Assembly (NCBI RefSeq): GCF_004365815.1 | Contig: NZ_SODD01000060.1 | Coordinates: forward strand, 1-10,381 | Direction: 5' to 3' | DNA: 10,381 bases | Source of the DNA: Breznakia blatticola | Lineage (GTDB): Bacteria > Bacillota_I > Bacilli_A > Erysipelotrichales > Erysipelotrichaceae | Part shown: positions 1,430-6,766 of the stretch, piece after piece | Position numbering within the stretch: position 1 is the stretch's first letter | Layout of the letters: each line of letters opens with the position of its first letter | Translations under genes and position numbers: made by a program | Notes under the pieces: generated by a model | What the model was told of the DNA's origin: nothing | What the model saw: only the letters and a program-made list of their open reading frames with translations | Databases searched by the model: none

Positions 1430-1750
1430 ATGGATGAGGTTTATGAAGTGTCATTTCAACTTATCTTAGCTGCAGGAAATTCAAAATCTGAATCAATGAT
1501 AGCGATACGAAATGCAAGAGAAGGTAAATTTGATGAAGCACTAGAACATGTAAAAAATGCACAAGAATCTCTGACAGAAGCACATCAAATTCAAACGGAT
1601 TTGATTCAAGGAGAAGCTAGAGGAGAGAAGTGTGAAGTAACCTTAATTATGGTACATGCACAAGATCATTTAAACATGGCGTTACTGACAATGGATCAAG
1701 CAAAAGAAATGATTCATTTGTATAAAGAAATATATGAATTAAAAAAATAA
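1430..1750 (+). CDS. PTS lactose/cellobiose-family EIIA component
   Basis: A 106-aa helical protein with the family signature MVHAQDHL (phosphorylatable His in HAQDH). GAGGAG at 1416-1421 lies 8 nt before ATG1430, so I prefer this start over the GTG1421 of the ORF track. Confidence 0.9.
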   Translation: MDEVYEVSFQLILAAGNSKSESMIAIRNAREGKFDEALEHVKNAQESLTEAHQIQTDLIQGEARGEKCEVTLIMVHAQDHLNMALLTMDQAKEMIHLYKEIYELKK

Positions 1751-1794
1751 GGGATAGATTACGTGTATATAAAGAGAGAGAATAGGAGATAAAC

Positions 1795-1989
1795 ATGAAT
1801 AAATTTGTTACAACATTACAGAAAATTCTAATGCCTATTGCGAATAAAATGAATAAGAATAATTATATTAAAGCAATGCGTGATGGGTTTATGTTAGCTT
1901 TACCGTTCACAATGACCGGATCAATTTTAACTGCGTTAGCAAGTATGCCGTTTTTATCGGATATATTATCTGCTTCAACTTTACAATGA
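1795..1989 (+). CDS. PTS lactose/cellobiose-family EIIC, N-terminal 64-aa fragment, separated from the rest of the gene by a frameshift
   Basis: MNKFVTTLQKILMPIANKMNKNNYIKAMRDGFMLALPFTMTGS is the typical N-terminus of CelB/ChbC/LicC-type EIIC. AGGAG at 1784-1788 lies 6 nt before ATG1795. The fragment ends at TGA 1987-1989, which overlaps the ATG of the next ORF. Confidence 0.75.
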   Translation: MNKFVTTLQKILMPIANKMNKNNYIKAMRDGFMLALPFTMTGSILTALASMPFLSDILSASTLQ

Positions 1990-3089
1990 TTAATACATTT
2001 GTCGCACCATCTTCGGTGTATTCAAATAGTATTTATTCACTATTTGTGGTTGTTGGGATTTCGTACAGTTTGGCAAAAACTTATGGAATTAATCGCATTC
2101 ACTGTGCAATGACCGCATTAGTAAGTATGTTAATTACAATTCCAACATCAATCATCACAGAGAGTGGAGAAGTGGTAGAAGGAGCATTATCACATTCACA
2201 ACTTGGATCATCTGCAATTTTTACGGCAATGATTATGGCATTTGTAATTACTGAATTATATCGATGGGCAGTTAATCATAAATTAACGATTAATTTACCT
2301 AGTAGTGTGCCAGCATCAATTCAGGATTCATTTACATCATTCATACCAGCAACATTATGTATGGTGTTTGCACTAATTATTTGTGCAGTATTTAAACAAA
2401 CATCTTATGGAACAATTGGTGCATTCTTATTTACAATGCTTCAACAACCATTATCTGTATTAGGAAATAGTCCAATAGCAGCGATTATCGCAGGTGTATT
2501 AAATAATATTTTCTGGTTCTTTGGATTGCATGGTCAAACATTAGTGAGCAGTATCTTCTCACCATTTTGGAAACCAGCTGCAGCAGAAAATATTGCTGCA
2601 CTAGCTGCAGGAAAAGCGTTACCAAACTTAATTTCATCAGGATTTGTGAATACTTGGATTTGGTTTGGTGGATGGATTTCAATTCCACTACTAATTGCGC
2701 TTTGGTTATATAGAAAGAAACGTAAAGACTGGGGAGAAGTAATGAAGATTTCCGCAGTACCGGGATTCTTCAATATTTATGAACCGTTGATGTTTGGATT
2801 GCCTTTAGTATTAAATCCATTTATGCTTATCCCAATGATTTTAACTCCACTAATTAGTGGAACGGTTGGATATCTTGTAACTGTTTCAGGTATTGTACCA
2901 TTTAGTACAGGAATAGATTTACCAATTACAATTCCATTAGGACTTAATGGTATTTTAGGATCAAATGATATATTAACTGGGGTCATTCAATTGTTGTGTG
3001 TTCCAATCTTGGTTGCTATCTGGTACTTCTTCTTAAAGATTCAAGATAAATCAGAAAGAGAATCAGGAATATATACAGATGAAGCGTAA
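1986..3089 (+). CDS. PTS lactose/cellobiose-family EIIC, main body (367 aa) in the -1 frame relative to the N-terminal fragment
   Basis: A polytopic membrane protein with EIIC-type motifs (NIFWFFGLHGQ, FGLPLVLNP). Together, 64 + 367 aa reach the normal EIIC length of about 430 aa. There is no SD before ATG1986. This frame is open upstream to 1884. Confidence 0.9.
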   Translation: MINTFVAPSSVYSNSIYSLFVVVGISYSLAKTYGINRIHCAMTALVSMLITIPTSIITESGEVVEGALSHSQLGSSAIFTAMIMAFVITELYRWAVNHKLTINLPSSVPASIQDSFTSFIPATLCMVFALIICAVFKQTSYGTIGAFLFTMLQQPLSVLGNSPIAAIIAGVLNNIFWFFGLHGQTLVSSIFSPFWKPAAAENIAALAAGKALPNLISSGFVNTWIWFGGWISIPLLIALWLYRKKRKDWGEVMKISAVPGFFNIYEPLMFGLPLVLNPFMLIPMILTPLISGTVGYLVTVSGIVPFSTGIDLPITIPLGLNGILGSNDILTGVIQLLCVPILVAIWYFFLKIQDKSERESGIYTDEA

Positions 3090-4110
3090 GAAAATACTTG
3101 GTGCATTATATGGAGCAGCTTATGGTGATTCTTTAGGTGCGATTACTGAGTTTTGCACACACGAAGAAATCATACATCATTTTCCAAATGGACTACGTAC
3201 GTATGAAAAATCAATTAGTGTAATAACTAAAGATATTGAATCAGGTTGTGTAACAGATGATTTTGGTTCTAGTTGCTATGTTATGCAAGAAATTATAAAT
3301 GAAGAAGGATACTTTCATCGTGATATTGCTTTGAAAGCTATCCTTGCTTGGTCTGAAGATGAAAATGTATTTAAACGATATGCTGGATCAAATACAAAAG
3401 CAGCAATTGAACGATTGAAAAAAGGTAGTGTTATAGAGGAGAGAGATAAGTTGTTTCACTTCCAAGGAAAAAACACAAATGGTGGAGCGATGAAAGTAAC
3501 ACCAATTGCTTTGCTTGCTAAACATGATGTAAGTAGAGTCATTCAATATACAAAAGACTTATGCTGGCCAACACATTATAATGCATCAGCAGTTTCAGCA
3601 GCAGCAGCAATTGCCTGTGCAATTGCACAAGCACAAAAAGAAACTACGATAGATAGTATAATTCATGAAGCAATACAAGGAGCAACAAAAGCCTGGAATG
3701 AAGTAAGTAATGAAGGATATGTCACATTTGGACCGCGAATTGAAAATCGAATACAGTATGCTGTTATGGTAGCAAGAAAGTGTACCACGGATGATGAGCT
3801 ATTCTCCATATTAAATAATGATATTGGAACAGGTATTTTAGTCAATGAATCAATACCAGCGGTATTTGCAATTTTAGCATATACAGATGGTGATTTTGAA
3901 AAGTCTATGTATCTAGCAGTAAATGCAGGTGGTGATACAGATACAATTGCATCTATGCTTGGAGCTATTGTTGGTGGATATCATGGTATAGATGTAATTC
4001 CTGAAGAAATTCGTGAGAAAATCAACGAAAAAAACCAAATGATTCACTTAAAAGAAACAATAGAAACATTTACACAAATGCTTCTACATGAAAAGGAGGA
4101 AGAAAAATGA
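3079..4110 (+). CDS. ADP-ribosylglycohydrolase family protein (DraG/ARH fold)
   Basis: Family motifs align with DraG/ARH along the whole protein. These are GAAYGDSLGAITEF (Asp codon 3127-3129), CVTDDFGSS (Asp-Asp codons 3256-3261), NGGAMKVTPIALL, and VNAGGDTDTIASMLGAIVGGYHGIDVIP (DTDT codons 3934-3945). The start overlaps the EIIC stop by 11 nt, and the stop TGA overlaps the EIIB ATG. Confidence 0.9.
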   Translation: MKRKKILGALYGAAYGDSLGAITEFCTHEEIIHHFPNGLRTYEKSISVITKDIESGCVTDDFGSSCYVMQEIINEEGYFHRDIALKAILAWSEDENVFKRYAGSNTKAAIERLKKGSVIEERDKLFHFQGKNTNGGAMKVTPIALLAKHDVSRVIQYTKDLCWPTHYNASAVSAAAAIACAIAQAQKETTIDSIIHEAIQGATKAWNEVSNEGYVTFGPRIENRIQYAVMVARKCTTDDELFSILNNDIGTGILVNESIPAVFAILAYTDGDFEKSMYLAVNAGGDTDTIASMLGAIVGGYHGIDVIPEEIREKINEKNQMIHLKETIETFTQMLLHEKEEEK

Positions 4111-4418
4111 GAATTATGTTAGCATGTGCATTAGGGATGTCTACAGGAATGTTGGTAGAACGAATGCGTGAAGAGGCAAAAAAACAAGAAAAAGACTATA
4201 AGATTTGGGCTGTAGATACAGCATCAGTCGATAAATATGTTGGTGAGTTTGATGTTTTATTGCTTGGCCCACAAGTGGCATTTGCCTTTGATGAAATTAA
4301 AGAAAAATATGATGCAACAACACCAGTAGCAATGATCAAACCTGTAGACTATGGAAGAATGAATGGTGCTTCAGTTTTAAAAGAAGCAGAAGAACTATAT
4401 ACATCAAGACAAGGATAG
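4107..4418 (+). CDS. PTS lactose/cellobiose-family EIIB component
   Basis: MRIMLACALGMSTGMLV carries the active-site Cys (codon 4125-4127). DVLLLGPQV is the second family signature. GGAGG at 4094-4098 lies 8 nt before ATG4107. Confidence 0.9.
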   Translation: MRIMLACALGMSTGMLVERMREEAKKQEKDYKIWAVDTASVDKYVGEFDVLLLGPQVAFAFDEIKEKYDATTPVAMIKPVDYGRMNGASVLKEAEELYTSRQG

Positions 4419-4444
4419 AAAAAGGAATCATTCCTTTTTCTTTT
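4418..4444 (+). terminator. Rho-independent terminator closing the PTS operon
   Basis: A perfect 10-bp stem GAAAAAGGAA (4418-4427) / TTCCTTTTTC (4431-4440) with a 3-nt loop, followed by TTTT (4441-4444). The stem is AT-rich with only 4 G:C pairs, so termination may be leaky. Confidence 0.65.
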
Positions 4445-4452
4445 CATATATA

Positions 4453-5298
4453 ATGAGAAAAAATATAGTAAATACTCTATGGATCATTGTAGGTAATTTC
4501 GTACTTGTAATAGGGGTGACTGCATTTTTGTTGCCACACAATATATTATCAGGTGGAATTACAGGGTTTGCAGTAGCAAGCGAATCTATATTTAATGTTG
4601 AAAAGGAATATATTATTAATGGATGTATCCTTACAGCGTTTGTACTTGGTGTAATCATACTAGGAAAGCAATTTGCATTAAAAACGGTTGTATCTTCAAT
4701 TGTATATCCAATATTACTAATGATCATTAAACCATGGATGCCATTTATTGCAGTTGACGAGGCTGTTGCTTCATTGTATGGAGGCATGATCTGTGGTATA
4801 GGATTAGGAATAGTTATGCGTTGTGGTGCGAGTACTGGTGGAATGGATGTATTCTCGTTAATTTTAAATAAGCTGTTTCATATAAAGATTAGTCATGCAG
4901 TGTTGTTGCTTGATACGTGTGTTGCATTATTAGGTTTTTTTACATGTGGGATTGCATCTGTATTGATTGGATACATTGCGATACTATCTACATCGTTTAT
5001 GGTTAATAAAGTACTTAATTTTGATACTCATCAAAAGGCGGTAAAAATAATTTCTGATAAACATGAAATAATCAATGCGCAAATACATAAAGAAATACAT
5101 CGCGGAACTACAATTGAAACCGTCAATGGCGGATACACAGGAGAATCCAAAACAGTGATTTATTGTGTAGTGAAAGCTGATCAATATACAAAGTTGATCC
5201 AATTAGTTGATGAAATAGATAATCATGCTTTTATTGTAACTACAAACGCAGTAGAGGCAAAAGGTGAAGGTTTTGATTATATATACTCCAAAACATAA
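4453..5298 (+). CDS. YitT-family integral membrane protein with C-terminal DUF2179-like domain
   Basis: The N-terminus IVGNFVLVIGVTAFLLPHNILSGGITGFA is the YitT-type repeat. The C-terminal soluble domain reads GTTIETVNGGYTGESKTVIYCVVKADQYTKLIQLVDEIDNHAFIVTT. ATG4453 is the first start codon in the open frame (checked back to the TAA at 4378-4380), but no SD precedes it. Confidence 0.8.
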   Translation: MRKNIVNTLWIIVGNFVLVIGVTAFLLPHNILSGGITGFAVASESIFNVEKEYIINGCILTAFVLGVIILGKQFALKTVVSSIVYPILLMIIKPWMPFIAVDEAVASLYGGMICGIGLGIVMRCGASTGGMDVFSLILNKLFHIKISHAVLLLDTCVALLGFFTCGIASVLIGYIAILSTSFMVNKVLNFDTHQKAVKIISDKHEIINAQIHKEIHRGTTIETVNGGYTGESKTVIYCVVKADQYTKLIQLVDEIDNHAFIVTTNAVEAKGEGFDYIYSKT

Positions 5299-5476: not shown

Positions 5477-5731
5477 ATGGATTGTTATTACATAATTGGA
5501 CTACGTTTAGCATCAAGAGTACATAATGCAGTAAAATTACAAGAAGTGCTCACGAAATCTGGATGTAACATTAAAACGCGTTTGGGGTTACATGAAACAG
5601 ATGAAAAATATTGCTCAAATGATGGATTGATCATCATCCAAGCTTGTGGAACAAAAGCTGAAATTGATGATATGATGACTGCCTTTAATGAAATTGAGGG
5701 TATCACTGCAAAATTAATGGATTTGAATTAA
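5477..5731 (+). CDS. Small (84 aa) ACT/ferredoxin-like-fold protein, possibly TM1266/NikR-C-like; function unknown
   Basis: A strong RBS AAGGAGGAG (5461-5469) lies 7 nt before the ATG. The residue pattern suggests beta-alpha-beta-beta-alpha-beta: YYIIGLRLAS / VHNAVKLQEVLTKSG / IKTRLGLH / GLIIIQACG / KAEIDDMMTAFNEIEG / ITAKLMDL. A terminator follows immediately. The family assignment rests on recollection only. Confidence 0.6.
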   Translation: MDCYYIIGLRLASRVHNAVKLQEVLTKSGCNIKTRLGLHETDEKYCSNDGLIIIQACGTKAEIDDMMTAFNEIEGITAKLMDLN

Positions 5732-5764: not shown

Positions 5765-6766
5765 TTATTCGTTATAGTATTCTGTTTGTACAATGGTTCC
5801 ACTAAATTCAGCAAGTGATGTAAAAGTACCACTCATCTTTACTGCACCATTAATATTTGGCGTATCAATAATAAACTCAATCATAGAGTTTGTACTATCA
5901 ATACAACCACCAGTTGTATGGTTGTCACTTTTTTCATCAATCTTCATTACTTTGAATGTTTGTCCAGTCGATGTAGTGAAACGGTATTTAGAACCAATTG
6001 GACCATAGTATGAACCTAAGGCAACAGCGATAAAACCGTCATCTGTGCGTAAAAGTCCATCTGATGATACGTTCATATATGAAGTCAAATAATTGTATTG
6101 AAGACTACCAACACGAATCATTCGATAATCCATAAATGATATGTTATCTGCGCTAAGGGAACAAGTACCGCTTACGTTATACTTGCTTTCTTCTGCTGCA
6201 AGTTGTGCTTCATAAGCTAAGCGAGCTGCTTCTTCTTGTTGGCGACGAAGTTCTTCAGCTTCTTTTAAACGTTTTGCTTCCTCTGCTTTTTGAATTTCAA
6301 TAGCTTTTGCACCTTGTGTAACTTCAGCTTGAATGGCAAAGCTTGTTGGGCTTTGTTGTGATTCAATACCTCTAAAGTTTTCTGCAACCACATTTTTACG
6401 CATAACTGTAGGTGCTTTTTGGATTTGTGTTCCACTTGTATAAACAAGTAATGAACAAACAGTTATGACTGCTACCGTACGTGGTAGTGTAACTTCTACG
6501 CCTTTGACGTAGATTAATATATGACGACCTAATGTACGACCATTCATGCGGTCGAATTCAACATGAATGAAGTTTGTTGTTTTGCATAAGACTTGCATCA
6601 CCTTAGTTACAGAAGTAGATAACAAGTGTTTTGCTGTTCTAATGATTTGAGTACATACGTTACTCAATCTAGTTTTTGAATTGTTAAGAAGTTGCGTCCC
6701 ACGTGCAACAAGAATCTTTACTTTATCTCCCAAACGGGAGGTGGGTTTCTCAACGTTTCTTTTCAT
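5765..6766 (-). CDS. Hypothetical bitopic envelope protein: basic N-terminal domain, one hydrophobic segment, coiled coil, and a C-terminal putative double-psi-beta-barrel (RlpA/3D/expansin-like) domain
   Basis: On the minus strand, RBS AAAGGAGAG lies 9 nt before ATG6766. The roughly 95 N-terminal residues carry 18 K/R against 5 D/E. The hydrophobic segment is TVAVITVCSLLVY (nt about 6437-6481). The coiled coil AIEIQKAEEAKRLKEAEELRRQQEEAARLAYEAQLAAEE spans nt about 6185-6313. The C-terminal part DGFIAVALGSYYGPIGSKYRFTTSTGQTFKVMKIDEKSDNHTTGGCIDSTNSMIEFIIDT has the spacing seen in DPBB domains. The domain call is inference only. Confidence 0.7.
   Translation of the reverse strand: MKRNVEKPTSRLGDKVKILVARGTQLLNNSKTRLSNVCTQIIRTAKHLLSTSVTKVMQVLCKTTNFIHVEFDRMNGRTLGRHILIYVKGVEVTLPRTVAVITVCSLLVYTSGTQIQKAPTVMRKNVVAENFRGIESQQSPTSFAIQAEVTQGAKAIEIQKAEEAKRLKEAEELRRQQEEAARLAYEAQLAAEESKYNVSGTCSLSADNISFMDYRMIRVGSLQYNYLTSYMNVSSDGLLRTDDGFIAVALGSYYGPIGSKYRFTTSTGQTFKVMKIDEKSDNHTTGGCIDSTNSMIEFIIDTPNINGAVKMSGTFTSLAEFSGTIVQTEYYNE

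Follow-up and report, generated by a model that had tools for sequence, protein, structure and literature searches.

A lactose/cellobiose-family PTS cassette of Breznakia blatticola with an ADP-ribosylglycohydrolase-fold enzyme: a candidate route for ribose-type glycosides

Operons of the lactose/cellobiose (Lac/Cel) family of phosphotransferase systems (PTS), such as licRBCAH of Bacillus subtilis and chbBCARFG of Escherichia coli, encode 6-phospho-glycosidases of families GH1 or GH4, and the known substrates of their EIIC proteins are β-hexopyranosides. We know of no PTS for ribosides. In the catabolism of pseudouridine by PsuK and PsuG, a riboside is phosphorylated at the 5' position and the glycosidic bond is then cleaved, giving ribose 5-phosphate. 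To our knowledge, the characterised enzymes of the ADP-ribosylglycohydrolase (ARH) fold all act on ADP-ribose conjugates and on α-anomeric linkages. Bacterial proteins of this fold are now annotated automatically as ADP-ribosylglycohydrolases, a name that implies the removal of a protein modification. E. coli yegU is an ARH-family gene that adjoins the PfkB kinase gene yegV and a gene for a nucleoside-type transporter; yegTUV is, as far as we know, uncharacterised. ADP-ribosylglycohydrolase genes adjoin ribokinase genes in the ribose-utilisation loci of Bacteroidetes (rus PULs), where the ARH-family gene, itself uncharacterised, is proposed to free ribose from ribose-containing nutrients (Glowacki et al., bioRxiv 10.1101/574913). 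A literature search found no account of a system that joins a PTS to an ARH protein.

Organisation and state of the cassette

The window, the whole stretch of DNA that was analysed, is an entire 10.4-kb contig of Breznakia blatticola. Its forward strand carries, in order, a PRD-containing regulator without its 5' part, EIIA-Lac, EIIC, an ARH-fold protein and EIIB-Lac, followed by a terminator hairpin. The EIIA gene (1430–1750, 106 amino acids; PF02255, E = 3e-33; TIGR00823, 108 bits; GenBank TDW09480.1) has AGGAG 8 nt 5' of its start and begins 1 nt past the stop codon of the regulator, which is therefore part of the same transcription unit. The ARH gene (3079–4110, 343 amino acids) overlaps the end of the EIIC gene by 11 nt (3079–3089), and its stop codon overlaps the start of the EIIB gene (4107–4418, 103 amino acids; PF02302, E = 6e-16; TIGR00853, 87 bits) in ATGA at 4107–4110; both junctions had been claimed in the preliminary description and both can be read in the sequence. 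The VHAQDH motif of EIIA and Cys7 of EIIB, in LACALGMST, are present; we take these to be the phosphorylation-site motifs. A hairpin resembling an intrinsic terminator, with an 11-bp stem followed by a T-run (about 4417–4451, forward strand), closes the transcription unit. The next gene on the same strand encodes a YitT/DUF2179 membrane protein (4453–5298; PF02588, PF10035) and has the same position 3' of the cassette in B. pachnodae (L090) and in a metagenome contig (L009), a synteny within Breznakia; it is only a possible member of the PTS-ARH system. Weak YitT-like ORFs follow add in two other loci (L019 and L021).

The regulator (1–1428, stop codon TAA at 1426–1428) was passed over in the preliminary description. 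It is of the LicR/CelR type, with the architecture HTH/Mga-PRD-PRD-EIIB-like-EIIA2, and the window holds the 3' two-thirds of the gene; a profile search detects the PRD (PF00874, E = 7e-36) and EIIA_2 (PF00359, E = 2e-22) domains. Homology to the orthologues begins at about nt 79–91 and runs to 1428, and the aligned part has 88% amino acid identity to the 637-residue B. pachnodae regulator, with a dN/dS of 0.04. Nucleotides 1–89 could not be aligned with the orthologous regulators, and similarity searches with them found nothing. A TGA lies in frame at 52–54, and all reading frames are interrupted within nt 1–89. The N-terminal, DNA-binding HTH/Mga half is absent; the contig begins here.

The EIIC gene had been taken as one ORF. 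It consists of two, at 1795–1989 (64 amino acids, model positions 1–51; TIGR00359/TIGR00410, E = 3e-11, and homologue alignment) and 1986–3089 (367 amino acids, model positions 68–418; PF02378, E = 1e-41), and no intact EIIC gene of about 430 codons of the TIGR00410 subfamily is found in the window. DNA alignment to the B. pachnodae orthologue places a 1-nt deletion at 1984–1987 of the forward strand (TTACAGATGATC to TTACA-ATGATT). CAG ATG becomes CA ATG, which gives an ATGA stop/start overlap; the 64-residue ORF ends at the TGA made by the frameshift, and the second ORF takes over without the loss of a residue. With one base restored, the protein has 431 amino acids and is 96.3% identical to that of B. 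pachnodae, with a dN/dS of 0.027. The gene is unbroken in both L009 and L090. The C-terminal fragment keeps the His and Glu residues of the GLHGQ and YEP motifs, which are invariant in the alignment of EIIC homologues.

With a split transporter gene and a regulator that lacks its DNA-binding half, the window copy may be non-working; it may have been recently inactivated or be mis-assembled. There is a real possibility, if on balance not the likelier one, that the window shows a cassette in decay, broken not long ago and no longer functional, with the system still working only in relatives. The split EIIC gene set against the intact orthologues, the first 89 nt with neither an open frame nor homology to the N-terminal half of the regulator, and the deposited annotation, in which the two EIIC pieces stand as separate proteins (the shorter as 'hypothetical protein' TDW09481.1), are consistent with such decay. 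However, the repaired EIIC gene carries no further lesion, so any inactivation would be very recent, or else an assembly error. The ATGA, at a native Met codon, could permit coupled translation of the two fragments, and the apparent truncation of the regulator falls at the contig end. A broken copy would concern the window only and is compatible with the functional proposal made below for the cassette as a whole.

The ARH-fold protein and its genomic settings

The ARH protein matches PF03747 over the full model (positions 1–287 of 287) with 179 bits against a cut-off of 26.2. Alignment to ARH3 bears out the earlier reading that its metal-binding motifs are intact: GDS (G16, D17, S18), TDD (T59, D60, D61) and GGDTDT (284–289). 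The predicted ligands E24, T59, D60, D61, D286, D288 and T289 align with E41, T76, D77, D78, D314, D316 and T317 of human ARH3; across 45 homologues each of them is either invariant or conserved to at least 90%. An AF2 model (pLDDT 94.8, pTM 0.94) has the all-alpha ARH fold, and Foldseek matches it with a probability of 1.00 to 1t5j, ARH3 and DraG (TM-score 0.76 to 1t5j (0.76/0.85) and about 0.71 to ARH3). The protein does not reach the equivalog models for DraG (TIGR02662, 67 bits against a cut-off of 337) or for the ADP-ribosylarginine hydrolase Tri1 (NF041672, 40 bits against 490, over the C-terminal 59 residues only). No nif or draT genes are present in the window. F126 and N132 occupy the positions of F143 and Y149 of human ARH3, which we take to be the adenine-stacking pair. 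The dN/dS of the ARH gene is 0.13, and all cassette genes are under purifying selection.

The order regulator-EIIA-EIIC-ARH-EIIB recurs in about 10 cassettes of Erysipelotrichales and Lachnospiraceae-type genomes. These are the orthologous and a paralogous cassette of B. pachnodae (L090 and L001), the metagenome contig L009, Lachnospiraceae MAGs L002 and L014, the genome of Clostridiales bacterium VE202-08 (L017), and MAGs of Eubacterium (L010), Holdemania (L012), Erysipelotrichaceae (L015) and Bacillota (L016); B. pachnodae DSM 16784 and Clostridiales bacterium VE202-08 have intact cassettes. The EIIC and ARH genes overlap by 8–14 nt in the loci where the overlap was measured between called genes (window, L001, L002, L009, L090 and Enterococcus L004). 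With order and overlapping junctions repeated in this way, the arrangement is far beyond chance, and the ARH gene is, as had been argued, an integral and conserved operon member across genera and not a passenger. It is also the sole enzyme gene: a profile search of the window detects no GH1 or GH4 gene, and the 10 related cassettes have none, so that the linkage of PTS and ARH is conserved without them. The orthologous loci L009 and L090 have YchF ahead of the regulator, and no GH1 or GH4 gene lies upstream there either. B. pachnodae separately has conventional Lac PTS operons linked to GH1 and GH4. In the class-1 cassette of the Holdemania MAG, a nucleoside 2-deoxyribosyltransferase-like gene overlaps the end of EIIB.

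The C-terminal EIIC fragment scores 260 bits, above the 236 set for TIGR00410 and below the 434 of the cellobiose equivalog TIGR00359. ARH-linked EIICs are 38–64% identical among themselves and only 28–33% identical to the GH1/GH4-linked EIICs of the same genomes; they are a dedicated subfamily, co-inherited with the ARH gene. A sister clade in Enterococcus and Vagococcus has GntR plus EIIC-ARH, followed in most loci by adenosine deaminase (above the TIGR01430 cut-off) and in one by purine nucleoside phosphorylase (PNP), an adjacency that could be inherited synteny and not function.

ARH genes also lie beside PTS genes of the β-glucoside type in two further lineages, 22 nt 3' of EIIBC on the same strand in Bacillus sp. 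A134 and divergent from a BglG-EIIBC operon in the Atopobiaceae MAG L078; the two proteins occupy separate branches of the neighbour-joining tree. The Bgl-type PTS of L078 occurs alongside a PsuG-family glycosidase. At about 45 loci of relatives with 38% identity or less, a ribokinase-like PfkB kinase takes the place of the PTS, although the scores of these kinases fall far short of the ribokinase threshold. Within 7 kb of distant ARH genes are Bmp-type ABC transporters (12 loci), IU-nucleoside hydrolases (12), FGGY kinases (10), transaldolase (8) and DeoC (6). Some distant relatives have CUT1 ABC transporters with no adjacent kinase, and tandem arrays hold up to five ARH paralogues. A search for a riboswitch or other clue to the ligand found none.

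Proposed function and alternatives

With its gene content, coupled junctions, intact residues for both the phospho-relay and the metal ligands, and conservation across genera, the cassette points to an undescribed route for using ribose-type glycosides. We lean towards reading it as a Lac/Cel PTS catabolic cassette in which a putative binuclear-metal hydrolase of the ARH fold takes the place of GH1 or GH4, a reading drawn entirely from gene context. EIIC and EIIB would import a small glycoside and phosphorylate a primary hydroxyl group, and the ARH protein would then hydrolyse the glycosidic bond of the phosphorylated compound in the cytoplasm, giving a sugar phosphate and an aglycone. The glycoside would most likely be a ribofuranoside, either ribosyl-O/N-X or a nucleoside-like compound; in that case the PTS would deliver a 5-phosphoriboside, equivalent to ADP-ribosyl-X without AMP, from which the ARH protein would release ribose 5-phosphate. 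This candidate deglycosylase role gains comparative support from the distant relatives, in which a PfkB kinase replaces the PTS and Bmp-type ABC transporters or nucleoside hydrolases are often near, and from the two other lineages in which ARH genes adjoin a PTS of a second family. The exchange of a phosphorylating transporter for a kinase is an argument that the substrate is phosphorylated. The hosts (Breznakia, Holdemania, Lachnospiraceae and Enterococcus) are gut-associated, which makes a nutrient of the gut the likely substrate, with nucleic acids, cofactors or glycans that contain ribose as its source.

More speculatively, and in our estimate rather improbably, the cassette could be the first riboside PTS, with EIICs of the Lac/Cel type, and independently of the Bgl type, phosphorylating the 5-OH and the ARH protein acting as a '5-phosphoriboside hydrolase' that releases ribose 5-phosphate. 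The product would feed straight into the pentose-phosphate pathway, the very large bacterial ARH family would have a catabolic function other than on ADP-ribose, and there would be a new phospho-glycosidase class beyond the current GH families. The Bgl-type PTS and PsuG-family glycosidase of L078 would extend the principle to pseudouridine-like nucleosides.

The same architecture might instead serve a hexopyranoside or another non-ribose glycoside, with an ARH-fold protein that has become a new kind of 6-phospho-glycosidase; the ribose and nucleoside theme of the distant relatives would then be inapplicable to this clade. Membership of EIIC in the Lac/Cel subfamily fits this, as does the resemblance of the Bacillus and Atopobiaceae EIIBCs to β-glucoside transporters above all others. 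Moreover, the ARH proteins linked to kinases, in nucleoside and pentose contexts, are only 28–38% identical to that of the window and its Lac-PTS clade, so their substrates may differ. We nevertheless regard a non-ribose substrate as unlikely: the metal site that binds the ribose 2''- and 3''-hydroxyls in ARH3 is fully conserved in the ARH protein, the closest outgroup on the tree is a locus of ARH, PfkB and IU-nucleoside hydrolase (L029), and the deoxyribosyltransferase-like gene of the Holdemania cassette and add and PNP of the Enterococcus loci also speak against it. The alternative raised in the preliminary description, a DraG-like regulatory de-ADP-ribosylase with a component of the PTS or some other protein as its target, which would couple modification to uptake, is very improbable. 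Although it shares its Pfam family and catalytic ligands with DraG, ARH1 and ARH3, the score falls far short of the DraG equivalog, and the neighbouring ORFs scanned in the window and related loci include none identified as ADP-ribosyltransferase-like. The gene also behaves as a diversifying catabolic enzyme, filling the enzyme slot of catabolic operons, swapping between PTS and kinase-plus-transporter settings and forming tandem arrays, a pattern typical of an enzyme that diversifies its substrates but not of a regulator.

If the ribofuranoside proposal is true, it would give a metabolic role to a large set of bacterial ARH-fold proteins, almost all of them uncharacterised, and bring a further fold into the small group of phospho-glycosidases that are coupled to a PTS. 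Ribosides or nucleoside-like compounds could also emerge as a class of PTS substrate so far not known.

Comparison with known systems

The cassette shares with the GH1/GH4-containing Lac/Cel operons the separate EIIA (PF02255), EIIB (PF02302) and EIIC (PF02378) genes, the PRD-containing regulator, the tight packing and the logic of phosphorylating import followed by cytoplasmic cleavage. It differs in the fold of its enzyme (PF03747) and in an EIIC below the cellobiose equivalog cut-off. With ARH3, ARH1 and DraG, the enzyme has in common the Pfam family, the all-alpha fold (TM-score about 0.7) and every ligand of the binuclear metal site. Identity to them is about 20–22%, the gene is embedded in a transport operon, and the scanned ORFs include none identified as a partner transferase; the residues at the positions of the adenine-stacking pair of ARH3 are unconserved in the clade of the window protein. 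The archaeal ribosylglycohydrolase MJ1187 (PDB 1t5j) is the best match in both sequence (E = 5e-23, against about 1e-14 for ARH3) and structure, but it is 23% identical and has neither a PTS context nor a known function. The rus PULs, in which an ARH gene lies beside ribokinase genes in a nutrient-scavenging locus, resemble the PfkB-linked relatives, which are only the more distant ones among Firmicutes. They differ from the cassette in being of the SusC/D type, in another phylum and without a PTS, and a profile search of the window detects no PfkB or SusC/D gene. The proposed logic of 5' phosphorylation followed by glycosidic cleavage is that of PsuK and PsuG; PsuG, however, has another fold, and its substrate receives the phosphate from a soluble kinase and not from a PTS.

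Organisation and state of the window cassette

The 10,381-bp window spans one whole contig of Breznakia blatticola (Erysipelotrichales), and the cassette is encoded on its + strand. A regulator of the HTH/Mga-PRD-EIIA2 type, of which the C-terminal two-thirds are present, ends at 1428 and is separated by 1 nt from EIIA-Lac (1430-1750, PF02255), which is followed by EIIC (1795-3089, PF02378), the 343-aa ARH-family protein (3079-4110) and EIIB-Lac (4107-4418, PF02302). A terminator-like 11-bp hairpin and T-run (4417-4441) close the unit. The coupling described from the preliminary reading is confirmed on the window sequence: the EIIC and ARH genes overlap by 11 nt, and the ARH stop and the EIIB start share an ATGA. 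The promoter scan of the window gave 18 sites (30 expected by chance), and Rfam scans of 18 sources gave no riboswitch or RNA element able to name the ligand. In Breznakia, a YitT/DUF2179 membrane protein (4453-5298) lies directly after the cassette. In two Enterococcus loci (L019:9092-9706 and L021:9918-10532), weak YitT-like ORFs come after the adenosine deaminase gene; the recurrence may be coincidence. Further downstream, an 84-aa CPF_0552-family protein (5477-5731, + strand; 104 bits, cut-off 85) adjoins a 333-aa ORF (5765-6766, - strand) with no match in Pfam or NCBIfam, and both appear unrelated to the cassette.

EIIC, previously taken as a single ORF, is in fact split into two (1795-1989, 64 aa, and 1986-3089, 367 aa), which match the cellobiose-type EIIC model at positions 1-51 and 68-418, respectively; both pieces have GenBank entries (TDW09481.1 and TDW09482.1). 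The window has one base fewer than the orthologous gene of B. pachnodae (L090, 79% DNA identity): where L090 has TTACAGATGATC, the window reads TTACA-ATGATT. The deletion removes no residues, and the ATGA stop/start overlap arises at a native Met codon. With the base put back, EIIC becomes 431 aa long and shares 96.3% identity with its L090 orthologue, at a dN/dS of 0.027; the lesion must accordingly have arisen very recently, reflect an error of assembly, or be tolerated. In Enterococcus sp. AZ194 (L022:4996-7008), the ARH-linked EIIC apparently retains only the last ~133 residues, with an opposite-strand ORF replacing the 5′ part, and may be another disrupted copy.

Similarity to the 637-645-aa regulator orthologues starts only at nt ~79-91. 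Nucleotides 1-89 are matched neither by three-frame tblastn with four regulators nor by blastn-short against all sequences compared, and contain stops in all three forward frames (the regulator frame has a TGA at 52-54). The late start of homology and the closed frames indicate that the DNA-binding half is missing at the contig end; the segment may mark the breakpoint of a rearrangement or an insertion, or the contig may end in poor sequence. The B. pachnodae L001 regulator is itself split, into a 93-aa HTH_11 ORF and a 542-aa ORF. Because EIIC is frameshifted and half of the regulator is missing, there is a real, if lesser, chance that the window copy itself is non-functional, whatever the substrate or role of ARH. 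The cassette is under purifying selection, and dN/dS values of 0.03-0.13 across it rule out an ancient pseudogene.

Conservation and genomic context of the PTS-ARH linkage

Neighbourhoods were obtained by exact look-ups and from 80 loci of a scan (one genome per species), with ORFs labelled by phmmer against reference proteins. Three classes result, with ARHs at least 50% (class 1), 39-45% (class 2) and at most 38% (class 3) identical to the window ARH. All class 1 members share one gene order, Reg-EIIA-EIIC-ARH-EIIB: the window, the metagenome contig L009, B. pachnodae (twice, L090 and L001), two Lachnospiraceae MAGs, the Clostridiales bacterium VE202-08 genome and MAGs of Eubacterium, Holdemania, Erysipelotrichaceae and Bacillota. 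Of the two paralogous B. pachnodae cassettes, L001:6428-11347 encodes an ARH that shares about 74% identity with that of the window, and L090:6720-11628 one that shares about 57%; L090, which has YchF on its upstream side and YitT on its downstream side, is the locus orthologous to the window cassette and L001 is the paralogue. The preliminary description had regarded ARH as an integral operon member, and the conserved order bears this out. None of the class 1 cassettes contains a GH1 or GH4 gene. Reading the orthologous loci rules out both a passenger gene and the glycosidase hidden upstream that would have spoken against the initial proposal; B. pachnodae does possess conventional Lac PTS operons with GH4 or GH1, but as separate units located elsewhere. 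In the Holdemania class 1 cassette, EIIB is overlapped at its end by a gene for a nucleoside 2-deoxyribosyltransferase-like protein (L012:8336-8824; E 1e-12 to PF15891), one more hint of the nucleoside type.

Class 2 comprises seven Enterococcus and Vagococcus genomes, in which a divergent GntR gene precedes EIIC-ARH (8-nt overlap), usually followed by an adenosine deaminase that scores above the equivalog cut-off and once by a purine nucleoside phosphorylase. Class 3 lacks the PTS; in about 45 loci a ribokinase-like PfkB kinase gene directly adjoins ARH, which is often present as two to five paralogues in tandem. Genes no more than 7 kb away encode Bmp (PnrA-like) ABC transporters and inosine-uridine nucleoside hydrolases (12 loci each), FGGY kinases (10), transaldolase (8) and DeoC aldolase (6), as well as CUT1 sugar ABC transporters. 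Five tandem ARH paralogues lie beside a Bmp-type ABC transporter in L048:6983-12174 and L060:4822-10141, the latter also with a PfkB kinase; these arrays suggest substrate diversification within the family.

Two further loci combine ARH with a beta-glucoside-like PTS. In Bacillus sp. A134, an operon of EIIA-Glc, BglG and EIIBC is closed by an ARH gene. In an Atopobiaceae MAG (L078:1954-8014, - strand), a single operon encodes, in this order, a BglG antiterminator, EIIBC, a ribose-1,5-bisphosphate-isomerase-like protein, an Indigoidine_A/PsuG-family glycosidase (Pfam E 2e-130) and EIIA-Glc, and the ARH gene is divergent to it. This locus looks as if a PTS had taken the place of PsuK in the use of a pseudouridine-like nucleoside. 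Neighbour joining groups the Lac-PTS-linked ARHs in a single clade, which is nested among the kinase-linked ones, and places the two Bgl-PTS-linked ARHs on other branches. The ARH-linked EIICs form their own subfamily: identity is 38-64% among them and 28-33% between them and the GH-linked EIICs that the same genomes encode.

The ARH protein

The ARH assignment made at first reading is upheld by the PF03747 profile, which matches over its full length (179 bits), and by the metal ligands, which are intact in the sequence alignment: E24, T59, D60, D61, D286, D288 and T289 align with E41, T76, D77, D78, D314, D316 and T317 of human ARH3. Across 45 homologues these positions show little or no variation. 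The AlphaFold2 model is confident (pLDDT 94.8) and its nearest structures are MJ1187 (1t5j, TM 0.76/0.85) and ARH3 (about 0.71); DraG gives 0.66-0.69 on the query and up to 0.80 on the target. The protein is not an equivalog of DraG (67 bits, curated cut-off 337) or of Tri1 (40 bits, cut-off 490). F143 and Y149, the adenine-stacking pair of ARH3, align with F126 and N132, and the clade does not conserve these two residues; this is weak evidence.

Proposed route and related systems

The strongest clue to mechanism is the exchange of PTS for kinase. The repeated replacement of the PTS by a transporter and a ribokinase-like kinase suggests that the substrate of ARH is the phosphorylated form of the imported glycoside, which the enzyme would cleave. 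A ribofuranoside is our best guess, because the neighbours are nucleoside- or pentose-flavoured and the ribose-binding metal site is fully conserved. A 5-phosphoriboside made by the PTS would chemically be ADP-ribosyl-X minus AMP, and its hydrolysis would be expected to yield ribose 5-phosphate. Gene content, coupling, conservation, co-inheritance and purifying selection are shown by the sequences; the phosphorylated substrate, its ribose nature and the products are inferred from genomic context. A less likely reading has a hexoside as the substrate and ARH as a novel 6-phospho-glycosidase. A DraG-like regulatory role, the ADP-ribosyl reversal tied to uptake that was first offered as an alternative, is unlikely given the catabolic slot of the gene, its paralogue arrays and the lack of an identified transferase-like gene among the neighbours scanned.

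In the open-access full-text literature, where absence is no proof, we found no ARH gene in a PTS operon. The one relevant paper provides a precedent in the Bacteroidetes rus loci, where ARH genes occur in ribose scavenging, although without a PTS and without biochemistry (bioRxiv 10.1101/574913). We regard the cassette as a PTS catabolic unit with a new enzyme class and probably a new substrate class. Its proposed logic is like that of ordinary PTS operons, in which GH1 or GH4 enzymes act on the phosphorylated substrate. The breakdown of pseudouridine by PsuK and PsuG, which also proceeds through a phosphorylated substrate, follows a logic like that of the proposed ARH route.
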